A stretch of DNA of 41,589 nucleotides, taken from Thermoplasmata archaeon. GTDB lineage: Archaea > Thermoplasmatota > Thermoplasmata > RBG-16-68-12 > JAJISG01. The translations under genes were made by a program, and so were the position numbers. How positions within the stretch are numbered: the first letter of the stretch is position 1; each line of letters begins with the position of its first letter. Location: contig JAZFPV010000034.1 in the NCBI GenBank assembly GCA_036444795.1, positions 1 to 41,589 on the forward strand, given 5' to 3'. The notes beneath the pieces were generated by a model that made no database searches, was not told where the DNA came from, and worked only from the letters and a program-made list of their open reading frames with translations. Positions 5,513 to 40,803 of this stretch are shown piece after piece.

Positions 5513-9850
<4,338 letters not shown>

Positions 9851-9854
<4 letters not shown>

Positions 9855-12800
9855 CGCAGGTCCTCCAGCTGGAGACGCATGGCTACGCCGAGCGACAAAA
9901 GCTCGTCCACCAAGAGCTTGAAGGCGTAGGAGGTCTGGACGGGGTAGATGTTGGAGTTGTTCCCGCAGACGTTGCAACGAAGGTTCCCCTTCCGGTCCTT
10001 CATGGCGAAATGGCCGCATTCGGGGTTCCCGCACACGTAGAGGAGGATGCCGTCGGACTCATCCAGGAGGCGGTCCTTGATGACCATGGCCGCCCCGTGC
10101 CCGATAAGGCAATCCCGCTCCATCTCTCCGAAGCGGAGGCCGCCCTGCCGAGACCGTCCCTCCGTGGGCTGACGGGTGAGGATCTGTACAGGCCCCCGAC
10201 TCCGCACGTGGAGCTTCCCGGAGACCATGTGGTGGAGCTTCTGGTAGTAGATGGCCCCGACGAAAATCTCCGCGGGAATCATCTGGCCCGTCTTTCCGTC
10301 GTAGAGGACCTCCTTCCCGTTGCTCTTGAAGCCGTTCTTCAACAAGCCCTCGCGGAGCGCGTCCTCCGTCTCCCCGCTGAAGGGAGTACCATCCACCGAG
10401 CGTCCCTCGGAGGAACCGACCTTGCCCCCGATCATCTCCAGGACGTGGGCCACGGTCATCCGTGAAGGGATGGCGTGGGGGTTGATCAGGAGGTCCGGGA
10501 CCACGCCCTGCTCCGTGAAAGGCAGGTCCTCCTGGGGGGCGATGAGGCCGACCACGCCCTTCTGGCCGTGACGGGAGGCAAACTTGTCCCCCAACTCGGG
10601 GATGCGAAGGTCGCGCACGGTCACCTTCGCGAGCTTGCTTCCGTTCTCCGACTCGGTGAGCATGACGCTGTCGACCCAGCCCTTCTCGCCATGGCGCACC
10701 GTGATGCTCGTCTCCCGCCGCTTCTGGGGGGTCAGAAAGTCCGTCTCCTCCTCAAGGAATCGTGGGGGAGAGGTCTTTCCGATGAGGACGTCGCCCCCCT
10801 CCACCCCAACCTCCGGGCTGATGAGGCCGTCATCCGGCGTGAGGCTCGCGTAGGCCAAGTCCGCGCGGGCCCCACGGACGTCCGGGCTCGGCGTCTCGAA
10901 GTGGTCCTCCTGCCCTCCCGGATAGCGACGCTCCTCGGCCTTGTAGGTCCGCATGAAGCTGGAGCGCCCCAGGCCGCGCTCCACGGAAGCCTTGTTGATG
11001 ACCACCGCGTCCTCCATGTTCCACCCGTGGTAGGACATGACCGCTACAATGAAGTTCTGGCCGGCGGGCCGTCGGTTGAAGTTGAGGAAGTGCATGGCTT
11101 CCGTCTGAACCATGGGGGCCTGCGGGTAATGGAGGAGGTGGCTGCGCGTGTCGGGCCGCAGGCGGTAGTTGGACGCCGCGAGGCCCAGAGACTGCTTGAT
11201 CATGCCGGCCCCCATCGTGACCCGGGGCGAGGAGTTGTGCTCCGCGTAGGGAACCAGACCCGCACTGACCCCAAGGATGACCAGAGGATCGATTTCCATG
11301 TGGGTGTGTTCCTTCGTGAGGAGGCTCTCCCCCTCCAGCGTGGATTTACAGAAGTGACACTGCAGTTCGACGAGGACCGACTCGCTGCCCGGGTTGAGCC
11401 AGTCCACGTCCCCCCGAGAGAGGGCGTGTCCACAGTGCGGGCAGTCGGGAGGCACCCCGTATCCGTAGAGGGAGATGAAGGTGTCCTCTTCTTCCTCTGC
11501 ATCGATCCATTCTACGATCCCGTTGTCGATGATATCGGTCCAGCGGAGCTTCCCGATGCGCAGGTCTTCCAAGTCCTTCCGGGTGAGGACCGGGCGGCCC
11601 TCCCGCAGAACGAGGAGGGGACGTCGCATTCGGCCTCGGTCGCAGTTGATGATGATCTCGTTCATGGAATGGTCGAAGCGGATGTTGACTTCGTGGCTCA
11701 AGAGTCCGGAACGACGGCGGCCCCGAATTTCCTCCACGAGCGTCTCCGGTTCCTCGTGCAGGCCCACCAGGTCTCCGTTGACGTACACGCGGGTGAGCTG
11801 GGTCTGCTGTCCGGCCACGCGGCGGGTCCCCAGATCGGCCAAGAGGAGCTTGACGGTGTCCTCGTCAAACCCTTCGGAGACGTCGATGACAAGGGCGGCA
11901 TTCTTGACCAAACCGCAATTCTGCCCCTCCGGGGTCTCGTTGGGACAGAGGCGACCCCACTGGGTCGGGTGAAGGTCCCGCGCCTCGAAGTGGGGCTGAC
12001 TCCGCGTCAGGGGCGAGGTCACCCGACGCAGGTGGCTCATGGCGCTCATGTGCGAGGTCCGATCCAAGAGCTGGGACACCCCGGCCCGTCCGCCCACCCA
12101 GTTTCCCGTGGATAGCGCGTGCAGGAGCCGCTGCGACAGGAGGTCCGGCCGGATCGCAGCCGAAATCTTCAGGCCCTTGCCCCGGGCGTAACCGCGCTCC
12201 AGCTGGTATTTTAGGTCCTTGATGAGGTTCGCGAAGGCGACCCGGAAGAGGTCCTCCATCAGGTCCCCCGCCAGCTTGAGACGCTTGTTCGCGTAGTGAT
12301 CCTTGTCGTCTTCGCGCCGCAAGTCCAAGGAGAGTTCGAGGATGGTCCGGGCGATCCGGCCGAGGAAGAGGGACTTTTTGAACCGATCTTCCTTCGTGTC
12401 GCCCAAGTGGGGGAGGAGGGAGCGGTCCAGGATGGAGTCCACCTTGCGGATCCGGTATTCCCTGGCCTGTCCCGTGGCGAACTTCTTCTCCAGATAAAGG
12501 AGCGCGTCCTCCTGGCTGAAAATCCCCGTGGGCGGGTAGAGCTTCTTGTTCTGGACCTCCTCTAGGTTCGCAAAGACGATGTTGCCCATCTGGGGCGTGG
12601 CGACGATGGCGTTGAAGATGTCCTCGTCCTTGTCCATGCCCAAGGCCTTGAGAAGGATGACCAGAGGAATCTGGCCTGACGCGGTGGGGACGGTGACCAT
12701 GAGCATGCTGTCCTTCTTCTTCTCCACCAGGGTCAGGGCGCGGTACCCCTCACGCTGGGAGAAGACCTTGGCCACCTCCATCCGGCGGCCGTACCGCATG

Positions 12801-13444
12801 CTGAATTCGACGAGAACGCGGTTGGGAGCCAGGTCCTCCAAGGAGATGAGTACCCGCTCCGTTCCGCCGATAATGAAGTAGCCGCCGGGGTCGTGGGGAT
12901 CCTCGCGGAGGTCTATGAGCTTCCGATGATATTCTTCGTCGAGGAGGTCGTACCCGTCCTCCAGATTCTCCCGGTAGAGGCGGCACTTCTTCGTCTTGAC
13001 CATCACCGGAAGGTTGCCGATGAAGACCCGCGCCGGCTCTCGCTCGATGCCGTCCTCAACCACCGTGAAGTCCAGGTAGAGGGGAGCTTGATAGGTCAGG
13101 TTCCGTAGGCGGGCCTCCATGGGGGTCAGAGGGTGAGAGGCCCCGTTGGCCTCCTTGACTTCCGGCAATTTCACGTGAATGGTGGGTTTCGCATCGAGAG
13201 GAATCCTCCCGTTGTCGTCGGTCCGCCGACCGAAGTGAATCTCAACCTTCCGACCGTCGGTCCGATCTTCGTCGAGTTTGATAATGCCTCGTCGCTCGTC
13301 ATCCACCATGGCCCGAAGGCTGTCCACGATGCCCTGCATCCGGCTGTTCAGGTTGTCCTCCGATGCCAGGAAGTCGTTGAAGCTGGCAATGTGGTGGTTG
13401 ACGATGCTTCGCTCCCGAAAGAACGCGTGTACGAGTTCCCGCAT
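9851..13444 (-). CDS. rpoB: DNA-directed RNA polymerase subunit B (unsplit Rpo2)
   Basis: 1197 aa. Contains [48 protein letters not shown] and a C-terminal Zn ribbon CGNPECGH...CNVCGN. Not split into B'/B''. Confidence 0.95.
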
Positions 13445-21529: not shown

Positions 21530-21650
21530 GGTGTGACGGCCATAGCGGCGGGGATACACCCGGTCCCATCCCGAACCCGGAAGTTAAGCCCGCCTGCGTT
21601 CCCTCTGGTACTGCGGTGCGAGAGCCCGTGGGAAGGTTGGCCTGCAAGGG
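21530..21650 (+). rRNA. rrf: 5S rRNA (stand-alone; boundaries approximate, +/- 10 nt)
   Basis: GGCCATAGCGGCGGGGATACACCCGGTCCCATCCCGAACCCGGAAGTTAAGCCCGCC...GTACTGCGGTGCGAGAGCCCGTGGGAAG matches the universal 5S loop C / helix III-IV consensus. Helix I pairing is imperfect by eye, so the ends are uncertain. Confidence 0.8.
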
Positions 21651-30656: not shown

Positions 30657-30742
30657 GCCGCCGTAGCTCAGCTGGCGAGAGCGACGGTCTTGTAACCGCG
30701 CAAGAGAACCGTAGGTCAAGGGTTCGAATCCCTTCGGCGGCT
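30657..30742 (+). tRNA. tRNA-Thr (anticodon UGU) with a 12-nt intron at the canonical 37/38 position (30695-30706)
   Basis: GCCGCCG TA GCTC AGCTGGCGA GAGC G ACGGT CTTGTA[ACCGCGCAAGAG]A ACCGT AGGTC AAGGG TTCGAAT CCCTT CGGCGGC T. All stems are Watson-Crick. The anticodon-intron helix is CTTG:CAAG with a 3-nt 3' bulge AGA. A TATA-like AATTACTTTTAC lies ~30 nt upstream. Confidence 0.85.
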
Positions 30743-35118: not shown

Positions 35119-36144
35119 TCATCCAAAGAGGGAGCTGAGGCCTGCAGCGGCCTCCTCCTCGTCGTCCGCTCCCTCCTCCTTCTCTTTCTGCTTCTTCTCC
35201 TTCTTAGGGGCCTTCTCGGGCGGGGTCTCCGCCTCCGAGGGTCCCTCCTCCACTGGGGGCGTCCCCAGGCGGGCCTTCAACTCGTCATCCAAGGCCTCGG
35301 GGACGTGACTCGCCAGGGCGGTCATCCGGGCATGGGCCTCCGATAGGAGGCGGGGCAGCACCTCGTCCACGGGATACTGCGCGGCCAAGGCCAGGGCGAG
35401 GGCCCGTTCTTGGGCACGGCCCAAGAGGGCAGGCGTCGTTTCGCGGGTCGGGTACGCCATTCGGAGGGCAAGCCCGTAGGCCTGCGAGGCCGCGGTGGCA
35501 AGGTCGTTTCGGAACCCCTCCTCGTCTAGGGCGAGGTGTTCGGGGGTGTAAAGTTGACCGTCCTCGAGGACCCCTCGCAGGTCGAGACCCACGGTCAGGG
35601 GGAGGATCTCCATTCGCGTAAGGACCCGGGCGACCTCAGGCCGAATTTTCTGGCCCGCCTCGACGAGGACCTTGTCCTTCTTGATGACCACCTTCCCCCG
35701 CTCGATGGCGGCCGGGATGCCGGCCTTCTGCAAGTCTCCCACGATCGGGCCCGGTTTGAAGGGCGTGTCGCCCGCCCGGACCACGATGTCCTCCTGGGCG
35801 ATCTCTCCGCCTCGTGCCGGCGCCTGGATCTTGGTGGCCTCGAGATCCTTGTAGAGGCGAAAGGGATTCTCCTCCGTAGCAACGACGGCGGTGGGACCGG
35901 TGAGAAATCCCTCGAGCCCCGCAATACCTGACCTCTCCGGGGCCATCGTGTCGAGGGCCCGCTGAAGCAGCCGGTTCTTGGTTATGCGGAATTCAACCGT
36001 CCCCCGAAGACGAGCCCGGATTTGTTGCATCTGCGGGGCCGGAATCCCCTCGATGCCGGCAAGGCCGATAACCCTAGCCTGGGTCAGCCAGGCAGCCAGC
36101 TCCCGCACCGCGGCCGCCTTTGGGTGCTCCGTGGCTTCCGCCAT
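35119..36144 (-). CDS. rpl10: Ribosomal stalk protein P0 (L10)
   Basis: 341 aa with the C-terminal K/E-rich tail and AAAGLSSLFG. The ATG overlaps the L1 stop (TGATG). Confidence 0.9.
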   Translation of the reverse strand: MAEATEHPKAAAVRELAAWLTQARVIGLAGIEGIPAPQMQQIRARLRGTVEFRITKNRLLQRALDTMAPERSGIAGLEGFLTGPTAVVATEENPFRLYKDLEATKIQAPARGGEIAQEDIVVRAGDTPFKPGPIVGDLQKAGIPAAIERGKVVIKKDKVLVEAGQKIRPEVARVLTRMEILPLTVGLDLRGVLEDGQLYTPEHLALDEEGFRNDLATAASQAYGLALRMAYPTRETTPALLGRAQERALALALAAQYPVDEVLPRLLSEAHARMTALASHVPEALDDELKARLGTPPVEEGPSEAETPPEKAPKKEKKQKEKEEGADDEEEAAAGLSSLFG

Positions 36145-36782
36145 CAGACCACCTTCACGGCAGGTCCCATCGTCGTCTTCACGTAAACGGACCCGATGTT
36201 CATCCGACCCCTGGGCAGCCGGGCTTCCACGCGCTTCAGAATCGTCTCCAGGTTCTCCGCCAGGTCCTCGGGTTTCATGTCCCGGGTCCCCACCGCGGCG
36301 TGAAAGGTGGGGCGGTCCTTGGAACGCAGACGCACGCCCCTCTTCAGATTCCGGATGACCCGGACGGGATCCCCACCCGGCGGGAGGGGACGGGGCATTT
36401 TCCCCCGGGGGCCCAAGACGGTCCCGAGGCGCCGACCTATGGCGGGCATCAGGGGAGCTTCGGCGACAAAGAAGTCGTGGTTCTGGGCCAGGTCCTTGGC
36501 CTTAGCCTTGTCTTCTGCCAGGGCTTCGATGTCCTCCGGGCCGATGATGGCGTCGGCCGCATCCCGCGCCTTCACGGCCATCTCCCCGCTTGCGAACACA
36601 GCGACCTTCACGTCGCGGCCTCGGCCCTTTGGAAGGATAATCTCTTCCTCAATGCGATTCGAAGGAACGCTTAGGTCGACGTCCCGTAGGTTGATGGCGA
36701 CCTCGACGCTCTCGGTAAAGTTTCGGGGCTTCGCCTGCTCCAAGGCCTTCTGAATGCCTTCGATAAACCCCTGTTCTGCCAA
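36144..36782 (-). CDS. rpl1: Ribosomal protein L1
   Basis: 212 aa; NFTESVEVAINLRDVD...GRRLGTVLGPRGKMP is typical of L1. TTG start at 36782. Confidence 0.9.
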   Translation of the reverse strand: MAEQGFIEGIQKALEQAKPRNFTESVEVAINLRDVDLSVPSNRIEEEIILPKGRGRDVKVAVFASGEMAVKARDAADAIIGPEDIEALAEDKAKAKDLAQNHDFFVAEAPLMPAIGRRLGTVLGPRGKMPRPLPPGGDPVRVIRNLKRGVRLRSKDRPTFHAAVGTRDMKPEDLAENLETILKRVEARLPRGRMNIGSVYVKTTMGPAVKVV

Positions 36783-36936: not shown

Positions 36937-37413
36937 TCAATCCGGGAAACGCCGATCGTGCAGACCCTCTTTCACCTCAGCCTGGATCTCCCGAGGCTCT
37001 TTGTTCTCTACGGTGACCCCGATTGAGACGCAGGATCCCAAGACTTCGAGGGTCTTTCCCTTGAGGTCGGCGCCCAGGGTTCCGTCGAACTTCATTTGGG
37101 CCACCTCGACGACCTGCACCAGGGTGAGGTTGCCCACGGGTTCGGTCCGAGGATTGCCGGACCCCTTCTCCAAGCCCGCCGCCTTGAGGAGCAGGGCGGA
37201 GGTCGTGGGGGTGCCCACCTCCAAATCAAAGGTGCCCTCGGTCGGGTCCACGAGAATCTTTACAGGGACTTTCATCCCGTCGAAGGCGGCCGTCCGTTCG
37301 TTCACCGCCTCCACCACCTGGAGGATGTTCATCCCGAGCGGACCCAGGGCGGGGCCGAGGGGCGGACCGGCCGTGGCCTTGCCGCCCTCTACGAGGACGT
37401 TGATGGTCTCCAC
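36937..37413 (-). CDS. rpl11: Ribosomal protein L11
   Basis: 158 aa; GGKATAGPPLGPALGPLGMN is the L11 N-terminal signature. The start directly abuts the spt5 stop. Confidence 0.9.
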   Translation of the reverse strand: METINVLVEGGKATAGPPLGPALGPLGMNILQVVEAVNERTAAFDGMKVPVKILVDPTEGTFDLEVGTPTTSALLLKAAGLEKGSGNPRTEPVGNLTLVQVVEVAQMKFDGTLGADLKGKTLEVLGSCVSIGVTVENKEPREIQAEVKEGLHDRRFPD

Positions 37414-38325
37414 TTAGCTCGTCTCCTTCTCTAGGACCCGCACGTGGTCCCCCCGGATCGTCACGGGAATGGGGACCATGGCCTCGAAGAGTTCCACGGT
37501 AATCTCTTCCTTGGCCTCATCGATGTGCATGACCCGGGCTTTTTCTCCCTTGAAGGGACCCGAGATGAGCTCGACGATGTTCCCTTCCATCATCCCAGAG
37601 ACCAGAGGCTTAGGCTCGAGGAAGTGGTCGATCTCGTCCAGGCTCGTGTCCCCTTGGACCAGGCCCCGGGCGCGTCGGATGCCCTTGACCATCTGCTGGA
37701 GCTTCTCCGCGTTCAAGACCTCGACGAAGACGTACCCTCGCATGGTCGTTGGGGAGAGGATGGAGTAGATCCCCACATCCCCTGACTTCGCTCGGGACGC
37801 GATCGAGTCTGCCACGGCCCGCTCGTAGCCAATGGAGGTCTTTACGGCCATGACGGCCTGCTTCGTGCCCGTGGAGAGGGTGATGGCATCCGTGACGGCC
37901 GGGTCCTCCTGGGATGTGAGGGTGACGATGACGTTGAGACGGTCCCCGTACTGGGCGCCGCGGGGGGCAGTAACGGAGAGGGTGATGTTCTTGGAGGCCC
38001 CCTGCTTCAGGGTCATCTCCTTCTCATAGACCCCCGTGAAGGTGAGATCCCACACCTTGGGTTCGACGCCCGTCACCTTGATGATCCAGTCCGAGGGCTC
38101 CGAGACGTCGGAACCGGCGACGAGGTCCACCTTGAGGATCGGCACCTCGTTCCGATTCCCGACGTTCTCCACCACGAGGGGGTAGTCCACGTTCACCCCG
38201 GCGGTGACGATGGCCTTCGCCTCCCCCTCCCGGAGGCCGATACGGAGGCCGTGCTTGACGATGAGGGGCTCTTCTCTGCCCTCCTTGGGAGCATCCTCCG
38301 GACGGACTTCGTCGAACAGGCCCAC
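37414..38325 (-). CDS. spt5: Transcription elongation factor Spt5 (NGN + KOW) carrying a ~155-aa N-terminal beta-rich extension
   Basis: Residues ~159-303 (MAVKTSIGYERAVADSIASRAK...GPFKGEKARVMHIDEAKEEITVELFEAMVPIPVTIRGDHV) align with my recollection of M. jannaschii Spt5, which is ~150 aa. Residues 1-158 are in the same frame with no stop codon. Confidence 0.8.
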   Translation of the reverse strand: MGLFDEVRPEDAPKEGREEPLIVKHGLRIGLREGEAKAIVTAGVNVDYPLVVENVGNRNEVPILKVDLVAGSDVSEPSDWIIKVTGVEPKVWDLTFTGVYEKEMTLKQGASKNITLSVTAPRGAQYGDRLNVIVTLTSQEDPAVTDAITLSTGTKQAVMAVKTSIGYERAVADSIASRAKSGDVGIYSILSPTTMRGYVFVEVLNAEKLQQMVKGIRRARGLVQGDTSLDEIDHFLEPKPLVSGMMEGNIVELISGPFKGEKARVMHIDEAKEEITVELFEAMVPIPVTIRGDHVRVLEKETS

Positions 38326-38335
38326 GCCTTCCCCC

Positions 38336-38572
38336 CTACGGGAACAGGCCCTGCAGCAGCTTCGGGAGCTCCGTGGCCATGAGGAAGATGCCGAAGCCGA
38401 GGCCCCCCAGCAGCAGGAGGCCGATGCCCGTAATCTGGAGGGTCTTGTTGAATTCTTCCGAGGTGGGCTTCCGAGCCATCCGCAGGACCCGGCCGTACTT
38501 CCCTCGGCCCAGCCGCTTGGCCCGCTCCTCGACGCGCTTTTGGAATTCCCATGCGCGGTCTACGATGTCCAT
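38336..38572 (-). CDS. secE: Protein translocase subunit SecE (Sec61 gamma)
   Basis: 78 aa with a basic N-terminal region, KPTSEEFNKT and a single C-terminal TM (ITGIGLLLLGGLGFGIFLMA). Conserved position upstream of spt5. Confidence 0.75.
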   Translation of the reverse strand: MDIVDRAWEFQKRVEERAKRLGRGKYGRVLRMARKPTSEEFNKTLQITGIGLLLLGGLGFGIFLMATELPKLLQGLFP

Positions 38573-38587
38573 CCGCCTTCAACCAGC

Positions 38588-39676
38588 CTAGCGCACAAAG
38601 TCAACAAGGGGTGCGCGCGGGTCGGCTTCCGGGGATCGACCCAGAATCTGCCGGCTCTCCACGCCGGTGAGGACCACCATAACCCTCAGCCTGTGCTCTA
38701 GGCTTTTATCAACCGTCGCGCCCCATATAATCCTTGCGTCGGGGCTGATTCGCTCCTGGACGTACTCCGCTACTCGCTCCGCCTCGTAGACGCTCATGTC
38801 CATCCCGCCCGTGACGTTCACGAGGGCCGCGGACGCCCCGCTGACGTCGACCTCAAGGAGGGGGGAGTTGATGGCCTGCTCCACCGCCTCTTCGGCGCGC
38901 TCTTCGCTATGGCTCTCCCCCATCCCCATCATGGCGACGCCCCCCTCACCCATGACCGTCCGGATATCGTTGAAGTCCAGGTTCACGAGTCCAGGGCGGG
39001 TGACGATCTCGGAGATGCCTTTGATCGAACGCATGAGAACCTCGTCGGCGACCTTGAAGGCCGCGGCCAGCGGCAACCGAGGCACGAGTTCCAGAAGGCG
39101 GTCGTTGGGGATCATGATGAGCGTGTCCGCATACCGCCGGAGCTTCTCCAAGCCCCACTCTGCGTTCTCCATCCGGATGACGCCCTCCGCCCGAAAGGGG
39201 AGGGTGCAAATGGCCACGGTTAAGGCGCCCATCTCCTTGGCAACTCGGGCCACGACCGGGGCCCCGCCTGTGCCGGTCCCTCCGCCTTCTCCGCAGGTAA
39301 CGAACGCAATGTCGGCCCCTTCCATGAGGGCACGGATCTGGGGTTCCGCCTCTCGCGCGGCCTCCTCGCCCACGTGGGGGAGGGCGCCTGCGCCGAGCCC
39401 ACGCGTCGTGTGGCGACCCAGGAGAATCTTGTTCGGAGCTCGGACGTGGAGCAAGTGCTGGGCATCCGTATTGGCGGCGTAGAGATCCGCCCCCTCCACC
39501 CCCGCCTGGACGGTTCGGTTGATCGTATTGCAGCCGGCGCCCCCGATCCCCACGATCTTGATCGTGGTTCGGAGGCCCCGAAGAACCGCCTCCAGCTCCT
39601 CGTCCACCGAGAGCGGGGTCTCGGCGAGGACGTCCTCCTCCTGGCGAAAGGCGAGGGCTTCGGCGAAGACCCCCAT
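38588..39676 (-). CDS. ftsZ: Cell division GTPase FtsZ (downstream copy of a tandem pair)
   Basis: [13 protein letters not shown], tubulin signature [19 protein letters not shown] (T7 loop), NSPLLE. 362 aa. Confidence 0.9.
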
Positions 39677-39681
39677 ATGCG

Positions 39682-40803
39682 CTACCCCACGAAATCGATG
39701 CCCAACTTTTCCTTGACCTCCTGGGCGGTCTTGCGGCCCAGGATCTGCTTCGACTTCACGCCGGTCGCGACGAGCATAATCCGAAGCACGTGACGGAGGC
39801 CAGGGTCCACGGTGGCACCCCAGATGATGCGGGCGTTTGGGCTCACACGGGCCTGGACCTCTTCGGCGACGCGTTCGGCCTCGGAGACGGTCATGTCTTC
39901 TCCGCCGACGACGTTCACCAGGACGCCCGTGGAGGAGGAGACGTCGACCTCCAGCAGGGGAGAGTTGATCGCCTCGTCGATGGCCTCGATGGCCCGTTCC
40001 TCTCCCGTCGCCTGGCTCTCCCCGAGTCCGATCATGGCGACTCCTCCGCCCTTCATGATGGTCTTGATGTCATTGAAGTCGAGGTTGACCATGCCGGGCT
40101 TCGTGACCAGCTCGGTGATGCCCTTGATGGAACGCATGAGGACCTCGTCGGCCACCTTGAAGGCGGCGTTGAGGGAGAGGCGCGGGACCAATTCCAACAG
40201 CCGGTCGGTGGGGATGGCAATAACCGTGTCGGCGTTCTCTCGCAGCTTCTCCAATCCCCACTCCGCGTTCTCTGCCCGGATGCGACCTTCCCCGGTGAAG
40301 GGCATGGTGACCACGGCCACGGTCAGGGCGCCCATCTCCCGGGCGACCTGCGCCACCATCCCGATGGCCCCCGTCCCCGTGCCGCCCCCCAACCCGCACG
40401 TGACGAAGACCATGTCCGACTCGGCCAGTGCCGAACGGAGTTCTTCCTCCGCCTCCTTGGCGGCCTGGCTGCCCACGTGCGGAAGCGAGCCGGCCCCGAG
40501 GCCGCGCGTAAGGCGCTTGCCTAAGAGGAGTTTATGCGGGGACTTCGTGTGAAGGAGATGCTGGGCGTCCGTGTTGGCGGCGTACAGCTCTCCTCCCGTG
40601 ACCCCTTCTTCCACGATGCGAGAGATCGTATTGCAGCCGGCGCCTCCGATCCCCACGATCTTGATGCGGGTCTTGAGCGAGGCCAGAACCTCTTCCAATT
40701 CCTCGTTCGCTTCCGTGTCGTCGGCGCTAGGGACCGGAGCGGTAAGGTCCTCCGACTCAAAGCCGAGAGCATCCCTTGCGAGTGATTCCATAAGGTATCC
40801 CAT
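39682..40803 (-). CDS. ftsZ: Cell division GTPase FtsZ (upstream copy of a tandem pair)
   Basis: [38 protein letters not shown]. 373 aa. Separated from the next ftsZ by 5 nt. Confidence 0.9.

Follow-up and report, generated by a model that had tools for sequence, protein, structure and literature searches.

Among transcription factors, Spt5/NusG alone is conserved across all cellular life, and the literature regards its archaeal form as a minimal protein of two domains and ~150 amino acids (aa). In the canonical archaeal proteins (147 aa in M. jannaschii and 152 aa in P. furiosus and T. kodakarensis; TIGR00405; PDB 3p8b, 4zn1, and 9bct), only 4 to 6 residues stand ahead of strand β1. Here we describe the spt5 gene of a Thermoplasmata archaeon (GenBank assembly GCA_036444795.1, contig JAZFPV010000034.1), found in a stretch of 41,589 nucleotides (nt) that was analyzed as a whole and is called the window throughout; gene positions are given in its coordinates (Table 1). 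The window Spt5 shares with the canonical proteins an end-to-end match to the core, the order of the NGN and KOW domains, and the locus, whereas 156 residues, comprising a short peptide, a charged tether, and an immunoglobulin (Ig)-like domain, precede its first NGN strand.

In all Spt5/NusG proteins, the NGN domain binds the clamp coiled-coil of RNA polymerase (RNAP) and closes or spans the cleft, and the KOW domain acts as a platform for partner binding (PMC3094117, PMC7819879). The NusG proteins of Thermotoga maritima and Aquifex aeolicus (PDB 2xhc and 1m1g) likewise carry a lineage-specific extra folded domain, domain II (DII), on the universal factor; in T. maritima, DII is reported to support recruitment to the elongation complex and to make the complex of NusG with RNAP more stable (PMC7819879). 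DII, however, is bacterial and inserted inside NGN, whereas the Ig-like domain of the window Spt5 is acidic and N-terminal, with a peptide and tether ahead of it, and no sequence relationship between DII and the Spt5 extension was detected. Eukaryotic Spt5 (DSIF) resembles the window protein in having an acidic extension directly N-terminal to NGN and a multisubunit RNAP as its partner (PMC7819879), but its N-terminal region is long and disordered, contains no folded domain, and is not homologous to the window extension; it also has extra KOW domains and a C-terminal repeat region, neither of which is present in the window Spt5. Extra modules on Spt5/NusG are precedented, but none is homologous to the Ig-like extension or placed like it, and we found no published description of an N-terminal folded domain in archaeal Spt5 in the targeted literature or in recent surveys of Spt5/NusG architecture.

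On every test that can be made in sequence, the window protein is a bona fide Spt5. Residues 160 to 302 match the TIGR00405 Spt5 model over positions 2 to 144 of 145 (169.9 bits, cut-off 69.95; E 3e-50), and Pfam recognizes both NGN (PF03439, 58.6 bits against a threshold of 22.4, residues 160–236) and KOW (PF00467, 34.0 bits against a threshold of 22.3, residues 248–278). Residues 158 to 301 give an ungapped alignment with positions 5/6 to 149 of the solved 152-aa Spt5 of Thermococcus and of Pyrococcus, with 46% identity (E 6e-43 for 9bct_G). The gene is very probably the lineage's ordinary, single-locus Spt5, and the RNAP subunit Rpo1N is collinear with that of T. kodakarensis through the clamp coiled-coil. 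A preliminary description of this DNA had placed a canonical NGN–KOW core, with the in-frame codon for Met159 at its beginning, inside a 303-aa open reading frame (ORF) that has no stop between residue 1 and the core. Both points hold: the TIGR00405 and PDB alignments delimit the core as described, and a single ORF of 303 codons runs from a GTG start to its first stop, a TAA.

Residues 1 to 156 form an in-frame extension ahead of this core. Contigs of two further assemblies of this species, GCA_044230885.1 and GCA_044232445.1, encode an identical 303-aa protein; their DNA has 99.7% and 99.5% identity with the window over stretches of 6.9 and 4.7 kb, respectively. Because these independent assemblies match the window with mismatches but zero gaps, an assembly indel is excluded. 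A more distant relative (L001/L002, ~74% DNA identity) keeps the frame through the whole extension, and its linker indel is a multiple of three codons. With only the extension as query, an exhaustive profile search retrieved proteins of ~290 to 400 aa that match at their N termini and continue into NGN–KOW. A word-indexed homology search returned only 2 to 6 relatives of the extension, a result that reflects sensitivity and annotation rather than rarity, because the exhaustive hidden Markov model (HMM) search and a genome scan found many.

For the genome scan, a peptide pattern taken from the junction of extension and core was run against GTDB, with each species represented by a single genome; 127 species matched, and 80 loci were kept. 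The kept loci are all labelled as Thermoplasmata/Thermoplasmatota metagenome-assembled genomes, including 'Methanomassiliicoccales', Ca. Proteinoplasmatales SG8-5, UBA10834, and UBA147. By tblastn, the extension is in frame in every one of the 80. An HMM built from the family N-domains matches the KOW-containing stop-to-stop frame near full length in 79 (E 1e-30 to 1e-62), and the 80th (L015) is a contig-end fragment that still has the extension and the beginning of NGN. The family set comprises 84 distinct sequences. Identity within the extension falls to ~25%, and all 84 are in frame, with indels in multiples of three. Ca. Methanomassiliicoccus intestinalis, from a cultured lineage, and the complete genomes CP058896.1 and CP070672.1 likewise encode the extension in frame. 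Within the Methanomassiliicoccus branch (L085/L086 2060–2935, L087 748–1623, and L090), it is far more divergent (HMM E 1e-9 to 1e-15) and lacks the long charged tether, and an LSLIFDE-like motif stands just ahead of the first strand, not at the extreme N terminus.

A 1.26-Mb metagenome contig (L092 1501–1992) encodes a plain Spt5 of 163 aa, 86 nt after secE, with a core 62% identical and no domain match to the Ig-like domain. This contig represents a lineage that either lies outside the gain or has undergone loss, and because its Spt5 is plain, the extension is clade-specific rather than phylum-wide. In this sampling, which lies outside the Thermoplasmatales, Poseidoniales, and Aciduliprofundales, the Ig-extended architecture is the ancestral state of a wide range of uncultured Thermoplasmata and of the Methanomassiliicoccus lineage. 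The preliminary description had given lineage-specific accretion as one of two readings of the fusion and had raised the question of whether relatives carry the two parts fused, separate, or not at all. The accretion is borne out in at least 80 species-level genomes, in independent assemblies, and by selective constraint (below), with the parts fused in all kept loci and the extension absent from L092.

Several members of the family carry additional segments. At L088 (48–1268; P0005, 406 aa; also L089), Spt5 has the Ig-like domain plus an insertion of ~95 aa between NGN α1 and β2. This insertion, a homologue of the middle portion of ribosomal protein L1 (identity 30% with the window L1 and 33% with the lineage's own; pairwise E values 1e-10 and 4e-11, respectively), is too diverged to be an assembly chimera. 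In that lineage, the L1 gene itself encodes only 183 aa, and an acetyltransferase gene lies between spt5 and rpl11. One clade (L058, L080, and P0006, 363 aa) has a K/E-rich, probably helical insertion of ~45 aa within the Ig-like domain, where it separates the W80 region from the P-x-G-A-x-Y-G-D hairpin. Two proteins in which the sandwich runs straight onto KOW with no NGN (P0003, 213 aa, and P0016, 187 aa) are read-level singletons (SRR2546427 and SRR3989304) and were set aside as probable chimeras.

To gauge selection, we computed dN/dS, the ratio of nonsynonymous to synonymous divergence, by the pairwise Nei–Gojobori method at dS 0.3–0.9 for ~30 sequence pairs from several clades. Values are 0.10–0.25 for the sandwich in most pairs (highest 0.46) and about 0.2–0.55 for the tether, compared with 0.03–0.08 for NGN and 0.02–0.05 for KOW. 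The extreme N terminus is conserved as well: position 2 is G or S in 71/84 sequences (G in 58/84), position 3 is L, V, or I in 79/84, position 4 is F or L in 78/84 (F in 66/84), and position 5 is D or E in 75/84. A Shine–Dalgarno (SD)-like motif lies 3 to 18 nt upstream of codon 1 in 76 of the 84. In the window, spt5 starts 10 nt after secE, as had been noted before, and the spacer is purine-rich (GGGGGAAGGC), following a TAG stop. The SD site, the conserved first residues, and the low dN/dS indicate that the extension is coding and selectively maintained, evolving a few-fold (3–5 times) faster than the core by these comparative measures.

The first codon across the family is TTG in 43, GTG in 16, ATG in 13, CTG in 3, and ATA in 2 of 84 sequences. 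This skew toward weak starts, counted with no correction for phylogenetic relatedness, may reflect coupling of translation to secE or deliberately low initiation. At four loci, L001 (5833–5835), L002 (same sequence), L010, and L011, CTG occupies the start-homologous codon with GGAGGTG ahead of it. L011 has a GTG two codons upstream, and L001 and L002 have no in-frame ATG, GTG, or TTG before codon 46, which falls within the first strands of the domain; in these two, either CTG initiates or a truncated domain is made.

Because the start is mostly TTG or GTG and the Spt5 reference models are 145 aa long, annotation usually drops the extension. A search with the core alone yielded 1628 relatives with annotated lengths of 144 to 253 aa, among them P0154 (ENA, 145 aa), which is the window protein called from Met159, and P0171, likewise annotated short. 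In Ca. M. intestinalis, the annotated Spt5 has 144 aa and follows 455 nt of 'intergenic' sequence after secE; the true ORF encodes 291 aa, and its copy of the domain (AEW…AP.GA…) is recognizable and more divergent. The short call recurs for L087, CP058896.1, and CP070672.1; in Ca. M. intestinalis and the two complete genomes, annotated lengths are 144 to 172 aa, with a 'gap' of 440 to 480 nt after secE. Since public annotations truncate the protein to 144 to 250 aa, surveys of domain architecture miss the extension, and a systematic annotation error in Thermoplasmata Spt5 is thereby exposed.

The preliminary description had recognized a β-domain in the extension, and the sandwich stands, but a conserved N-terminal peptide and a charged tether ahead of it had been overlooked (Table 1). 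Across the family, the tether is 14 to 40 aa long, with a median net charge of −2 (range −15 to +1). The hallmark residues of the sandwich (N54, W80, and P121-x-G-A-x-Y-G-D128) are conserved throughout, and the sandwich–NGN junction, A-R/K-Q-x-Φ-Φ-A-V-K-T, is among the best-conserved stretches of the protein. The median net charge is −7 for the sandwich and +4 for NGN, and the window extension has an isoelectric point of 4.8 and a net charge of −7. Hydropathy gave no transmembrane helix or signal peptide in residues 1 to 158 (maximum Kyte–Doolittle 19-residue window 0.98), in agreement with the earlier account.

Without an alignment, AlphaFold2 (AF2) produced an unusable model, with a predicted local distance difference test score (pLDDT) of 43; the model used here comes from a run with a 13-sequence family alignment, which reached a mean pLDDT of 78.5. 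This model predicts nine β-strands in residues 27 to 154, with block pLDDT mostly 75–91, so that the all-β character ascribed earlier to the upstream segment is supported by prediction from residue 27 onward. Values fall below 50 at residues 1–8 and 13–20, and the stretch 1–20 averages 46–47. The last sandwich strand (145–154) leads almost directly into NGN β1 (157–163). A Foldseek search with the model, a step the preliminary description had suggested, returned from the PDB, after Spt5/NusG chains, the β-sandwich domains of GH123 glycosidases (5fqh, E 2e-6), NgaCa (8k2g), and TTHA1873 (7wwo), with E values of about 2e-6 to 5e-6.

Residues 1 to 158 yield only subthreshold Ig-like matches in Pfam, including DUF7927 at 19.4 bits, NEW3/NPCBM_assoc (PF10633) at 17.8 bits (E 0.0039, residues 87–129 only; gathering threshold 24.4), and FixG_C (PF11614) at 16.6 bits (gathering threshold 25.6). 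CARDB (PF07705) gave no match at E ≤ 10 for the window protein and none at E ≤ 0.1 among 19 family members. In a scan of 19 diverse Spt5 N-domains (E < 0.1), FixG_C was matched by 11 (best E 5e-5), NEW3 by 6, fn3_5 by 2, and CARDB by 0, and no whole-protein score above a gathering threshold was seen among them. A profile of the extension retrieves ~200 large multirepeat proteins at E 1e-22 to 1e-9, mostly via positions 100–155, where the shared region reads …L.V.AP.GA.YGD…V.V.A.S. Pfam assigns the repeats of these proteins to FixG_C, NEW3/NPCBM_assoc, Ig_VWA7, CARDB, and DUF11, and they also score against the MSP family; CARDB is reached only transitively, through these repeat proteins. The N-domain profile found nothing below E 0.14 among PDB sequences.

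From the model and profiles, the extension domain is best assigned as a divergent member of the E-set Ig-like group (FixG_C/NEW3/CARDB), at the superfamily level only. It shares with these domains the …V.N.G… and …L.V.AP.GA.YGD…V.V.A.S signature and a predicted β-sandwich, but whereas they are typically secreted or exposed at the surface, the Spt5 extension is cytoplasmic, sits on a transcription factor, and scores below the gathering thresholds. The CARDB/NEW3 label first given to the segment therefore survives at the superfamily level, although not as a family assignment, NEW3 and FixG_C being subthreshold and CARDB unmatched.

The gene sits in the classical archaeal cluster, in the order ftsZ–ftsZ–secE–spt5–rpl11–rpl1–rpl10–rpl12, with gene identities confirmed, and the secE–spt5–rpl11 order is also found in relatives. 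Tandem ftsZ paralogues lie directly upstream of secE–spt5, an arrangement kept in relatives (L001–L004 and L085). The genome has a guanine-plus-cytosine (GC) content of 64%. Among the RNAP genes of the window, rpo2 (9851–13444, minus strand) encodes 1197 aa with an insertion of ~46 aa at residues 662–709 relative to residues 633–635 of T. kodakarensis Rpo2, about where B splits into B''/B' in some archaea. We did not use this insertion as an Spt5-linked feature, there being no evidence that it lies near Spt5. Rpo1C (5513–7081) has 522 aa, which is long for an A'' subunit. The window also holds a stand-alone 5S rRNA gene (21532–21649, plus strand; 81.9 bits), away from any 16S/23S, and an 86-nt tRNA (30657–30742, plus strand) whose anticodon was not named by ARAGORN.

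Table 1. Coordinates of spt5, its parts, and neighboring genes in the 41,589-nt window
Feature	Position	Strand	Basis or remark
spt5, complete gene	37414..38325	-	303 codons + TAA stop (37414-37416); identical protein on two other assemblies
spt5 start codon, GTG	38323..38325	-	read in sequence
Purine-rich SD-like site, GGGGGGAAGGC	38326..38336	-	secE-spt5 spacer; its first base closes the secE stop codon
N-terminal peptide G-L-F-D-E, residues 2-6	38308..38322	-	family consensus M-[GS]-[LIV]-[FL]-[DE]
Charged Pro/Lys/Glu-rich tether, residues 7-25	38251..38307	-	predicted disordered; pLDDT <50 at residues 1-8 and 13-20
Acidic Ig-like β-sandwich, residues 26-156	37858..38250	-	nine predicted strands; AF2, Foldseek, profiles
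NGN domain, residues 157-240	37606..37857	-	Pfam PF03439; PDB alignment; conservation across family
In-frame ATG, Met159	37849..37851	-	start used by some annotation pipelines
KOW domain and C-terminal tail, residues 248-303	37417..37584	-	PF00467; AF2 strands 250-299
secE (Sec61-gamma)	38336..38572	-	TIGR00327 43.7 bits, cut-off 36.2; synteny in relatives
ftsZ	38588..39676	-	
ftsZ	39682..40803	-	
rpl11	36937..37413		L11 start (37413) immediately follows spt5 stop
rpl1	36144..36782		

Purifying selection and the SD-preceded start suggest that spt5 very probably yields a single 33-kDa polypeptide, initiated at the GTG at 38325 and comprising the peptide, the ~20-aa tether, the nine-strand Ig-like sandwich, and NGN plus KOW. 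Only 2 to 3 residues, by way of the conserved junction, connect the sandwich to NGN β1, so the sandwich must travel with NGN on the polymerase, and it would ride on elongating RNAP directly beside NGN. Because it is acidic (family median −7), it is unlikely to hold nucleic acid, which favors protein contacts. We tentatively propose that the sandwich might serve as an extra protein–protein interaction module that stabilizes or tunes Spt5 on RNAP and/or uses the tethered Φ-F-[DE] peptide for docking. In a stabilizer version, it would stabilize or tune Spt5 on RNAP as DII does for Thermotoga NusG; in a recruitment version, it would present the tethered peptide to a partner, or the peptide would fold back on the sandwich.

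Several observations weigh against this proposal. The evidence for the 303-aa product is comparative. The AF2 model has a predicted template modeling score (pTM) of 0.54, and the orientation of the sandwich relative to NGN cannot be read from pLDDT or pTM; the N-terminal peptide is likewise left without a confident placement (pLDDT <50). A co-varying insertion in the RNAP clamp coiled-coil was looked for, and none was found. The plain Spt5 of L092 implies that the module is dispensable in principle. As for replacement of Spt4 by the sandwich, there is no Spt4 candidate within the 41.6-kb window, which is uninformative on this point.

FFAT peptides dock on MSP-type sandwiches, and the KOW domain of RfaH masks its NGN. 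The Φ-F-[DE] peptide of Spt5 could similarly act as a tethered ligand, docking in cis on the Ig-like domain or on the RNAP-binding face of NGN, so that Spt5 would stay shut until the peptide was dislodged by RNAP or a partner. We regard such autoregulation as unlikely. A short hydrophobic-acidic peptide is conserved at the very N terminus, the flexible tether is long enough to reach back, the related repeat proteins also score against MSP, and autoinhibition is known among NusG homologues (PMC7819879). AF2 nevertheless leaves the peptide undocked, and the Methanomassiliicoccus branch is nearly without a tether and has a different N terminus.

It is quite improbable that the domain is a neutral passenger, captured once from a surface-protein repeat and persisting without a specific role. 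Its nearest relatives are indeed extracellular repeat domains, it evolves faster than the core, L092 does without it, and some clades tolerate the 45-aa insertion inside it, but sandwich dN/dS stays at 0.1–0.25 in most of the ~30 pairs, and the hallmark residues and junction are conserved family-wide. The N-terminal peptide and SD site are kept in nearly all members, and one would expect evolution to discard a useless 17-kDa appendage on an essential, abundant factor that sits on the RNAP cleft.

The preliminary description had also raised the prospect of dual isoforms from Met1 and Met159, that is, the 303-aa protein and a 145-aa Spt5, with the weak GTG/TTG upstream start setting their ratio. 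The window ATG does fall exactly at the beginning of the core, and ATG, GTG, or TTG occurs within columns 154–161 in 69 of the 84 sequences. At column 159, however, 27/84 sequences have Met, against 50 with Leu, 6 with Ile, and 1 with Phe (Leu or Ile in 57/84); the Leu codons are always CTN (CTC, CTG, CTT, or CTA, never TTG), and in 15/84 the junction contains no canonical start codon. Met159 is explained structurally, because M, L, or I there is a hydrophobic residue of NGN β1, aligned with a Phe in Pyrococcus Spt5. About 80% of the family use a non-ATG upstream start, which could in principle let ribosomes load elsewhere, but an SD-like site precedes 0 of the 69 internal candidates, compared with 76/84 for codon 1. 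The short form appears in the annotations of several pipelines (P0154 and P0171), but these calls stem from HMM-guided start picking against the 145-aa family model. A conserved internal start thus finds no support in the comparison, and we consider a second isoform highly unlikely.

The peptide and tether could, finally, mirror the tail of the ribosomal P-stalk; Spt5 would then carry a stalk-like bait that physically links the elongating polymerase with translation factors or with the ribosome. The operon also encodes the stalk protein aP1, whose sequence closes with a K/E-rich linker and then EEEAAAGLGALFG, and Spt5 has MGLFD[DE] at its start with a K/E/P-rich linker after it; aEF1A, aEF2, aIF5B, and ABCE1 are recruited through the stalk tail (PMC4267659, PMC6125642). 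Co-variation has no power to test this idea, since the 22 loci in which an aP1 tail was captured all show one and the same tail (AGLGALFG). We hold this reading to be a very long shot; if true, it would be an archaeal, NusG-independent route to transcription–translation coupling, with the Ig-like domain as spacer or platform.

An artefact in which an assembly indel or lost stop joined an unrelated ORF or noncoding spacer to a normal spt5 has practically no chance of being correct: a 64% GC genome yields long chance ORFs, and the extension has no significant Pfam match, but three assemblies agree without gaps, 84 distinct sequences keep the frame, their indels being multiples of three, dN/dS lies well below 1, and the SD site and N-terminal peptide are conserved.

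A branch of the Thermoplasmata, including the human-gut methanogen lineage Methanomassiliicoccus, uses an Spt5 twice the usual size, which changes the two-domain picture of this factor for a major archaeal group. An Ig domain of the surface-protein type is found riding on a cytoplasmic RNAP factor, together with a conserved tethered peptide. The family offers a natural experiment in the addition of an accessory module to an elongation factor, parallel to the acidic N-terminal region of eukaryotic Spt5 and to domain II of Thermotoga NusG.

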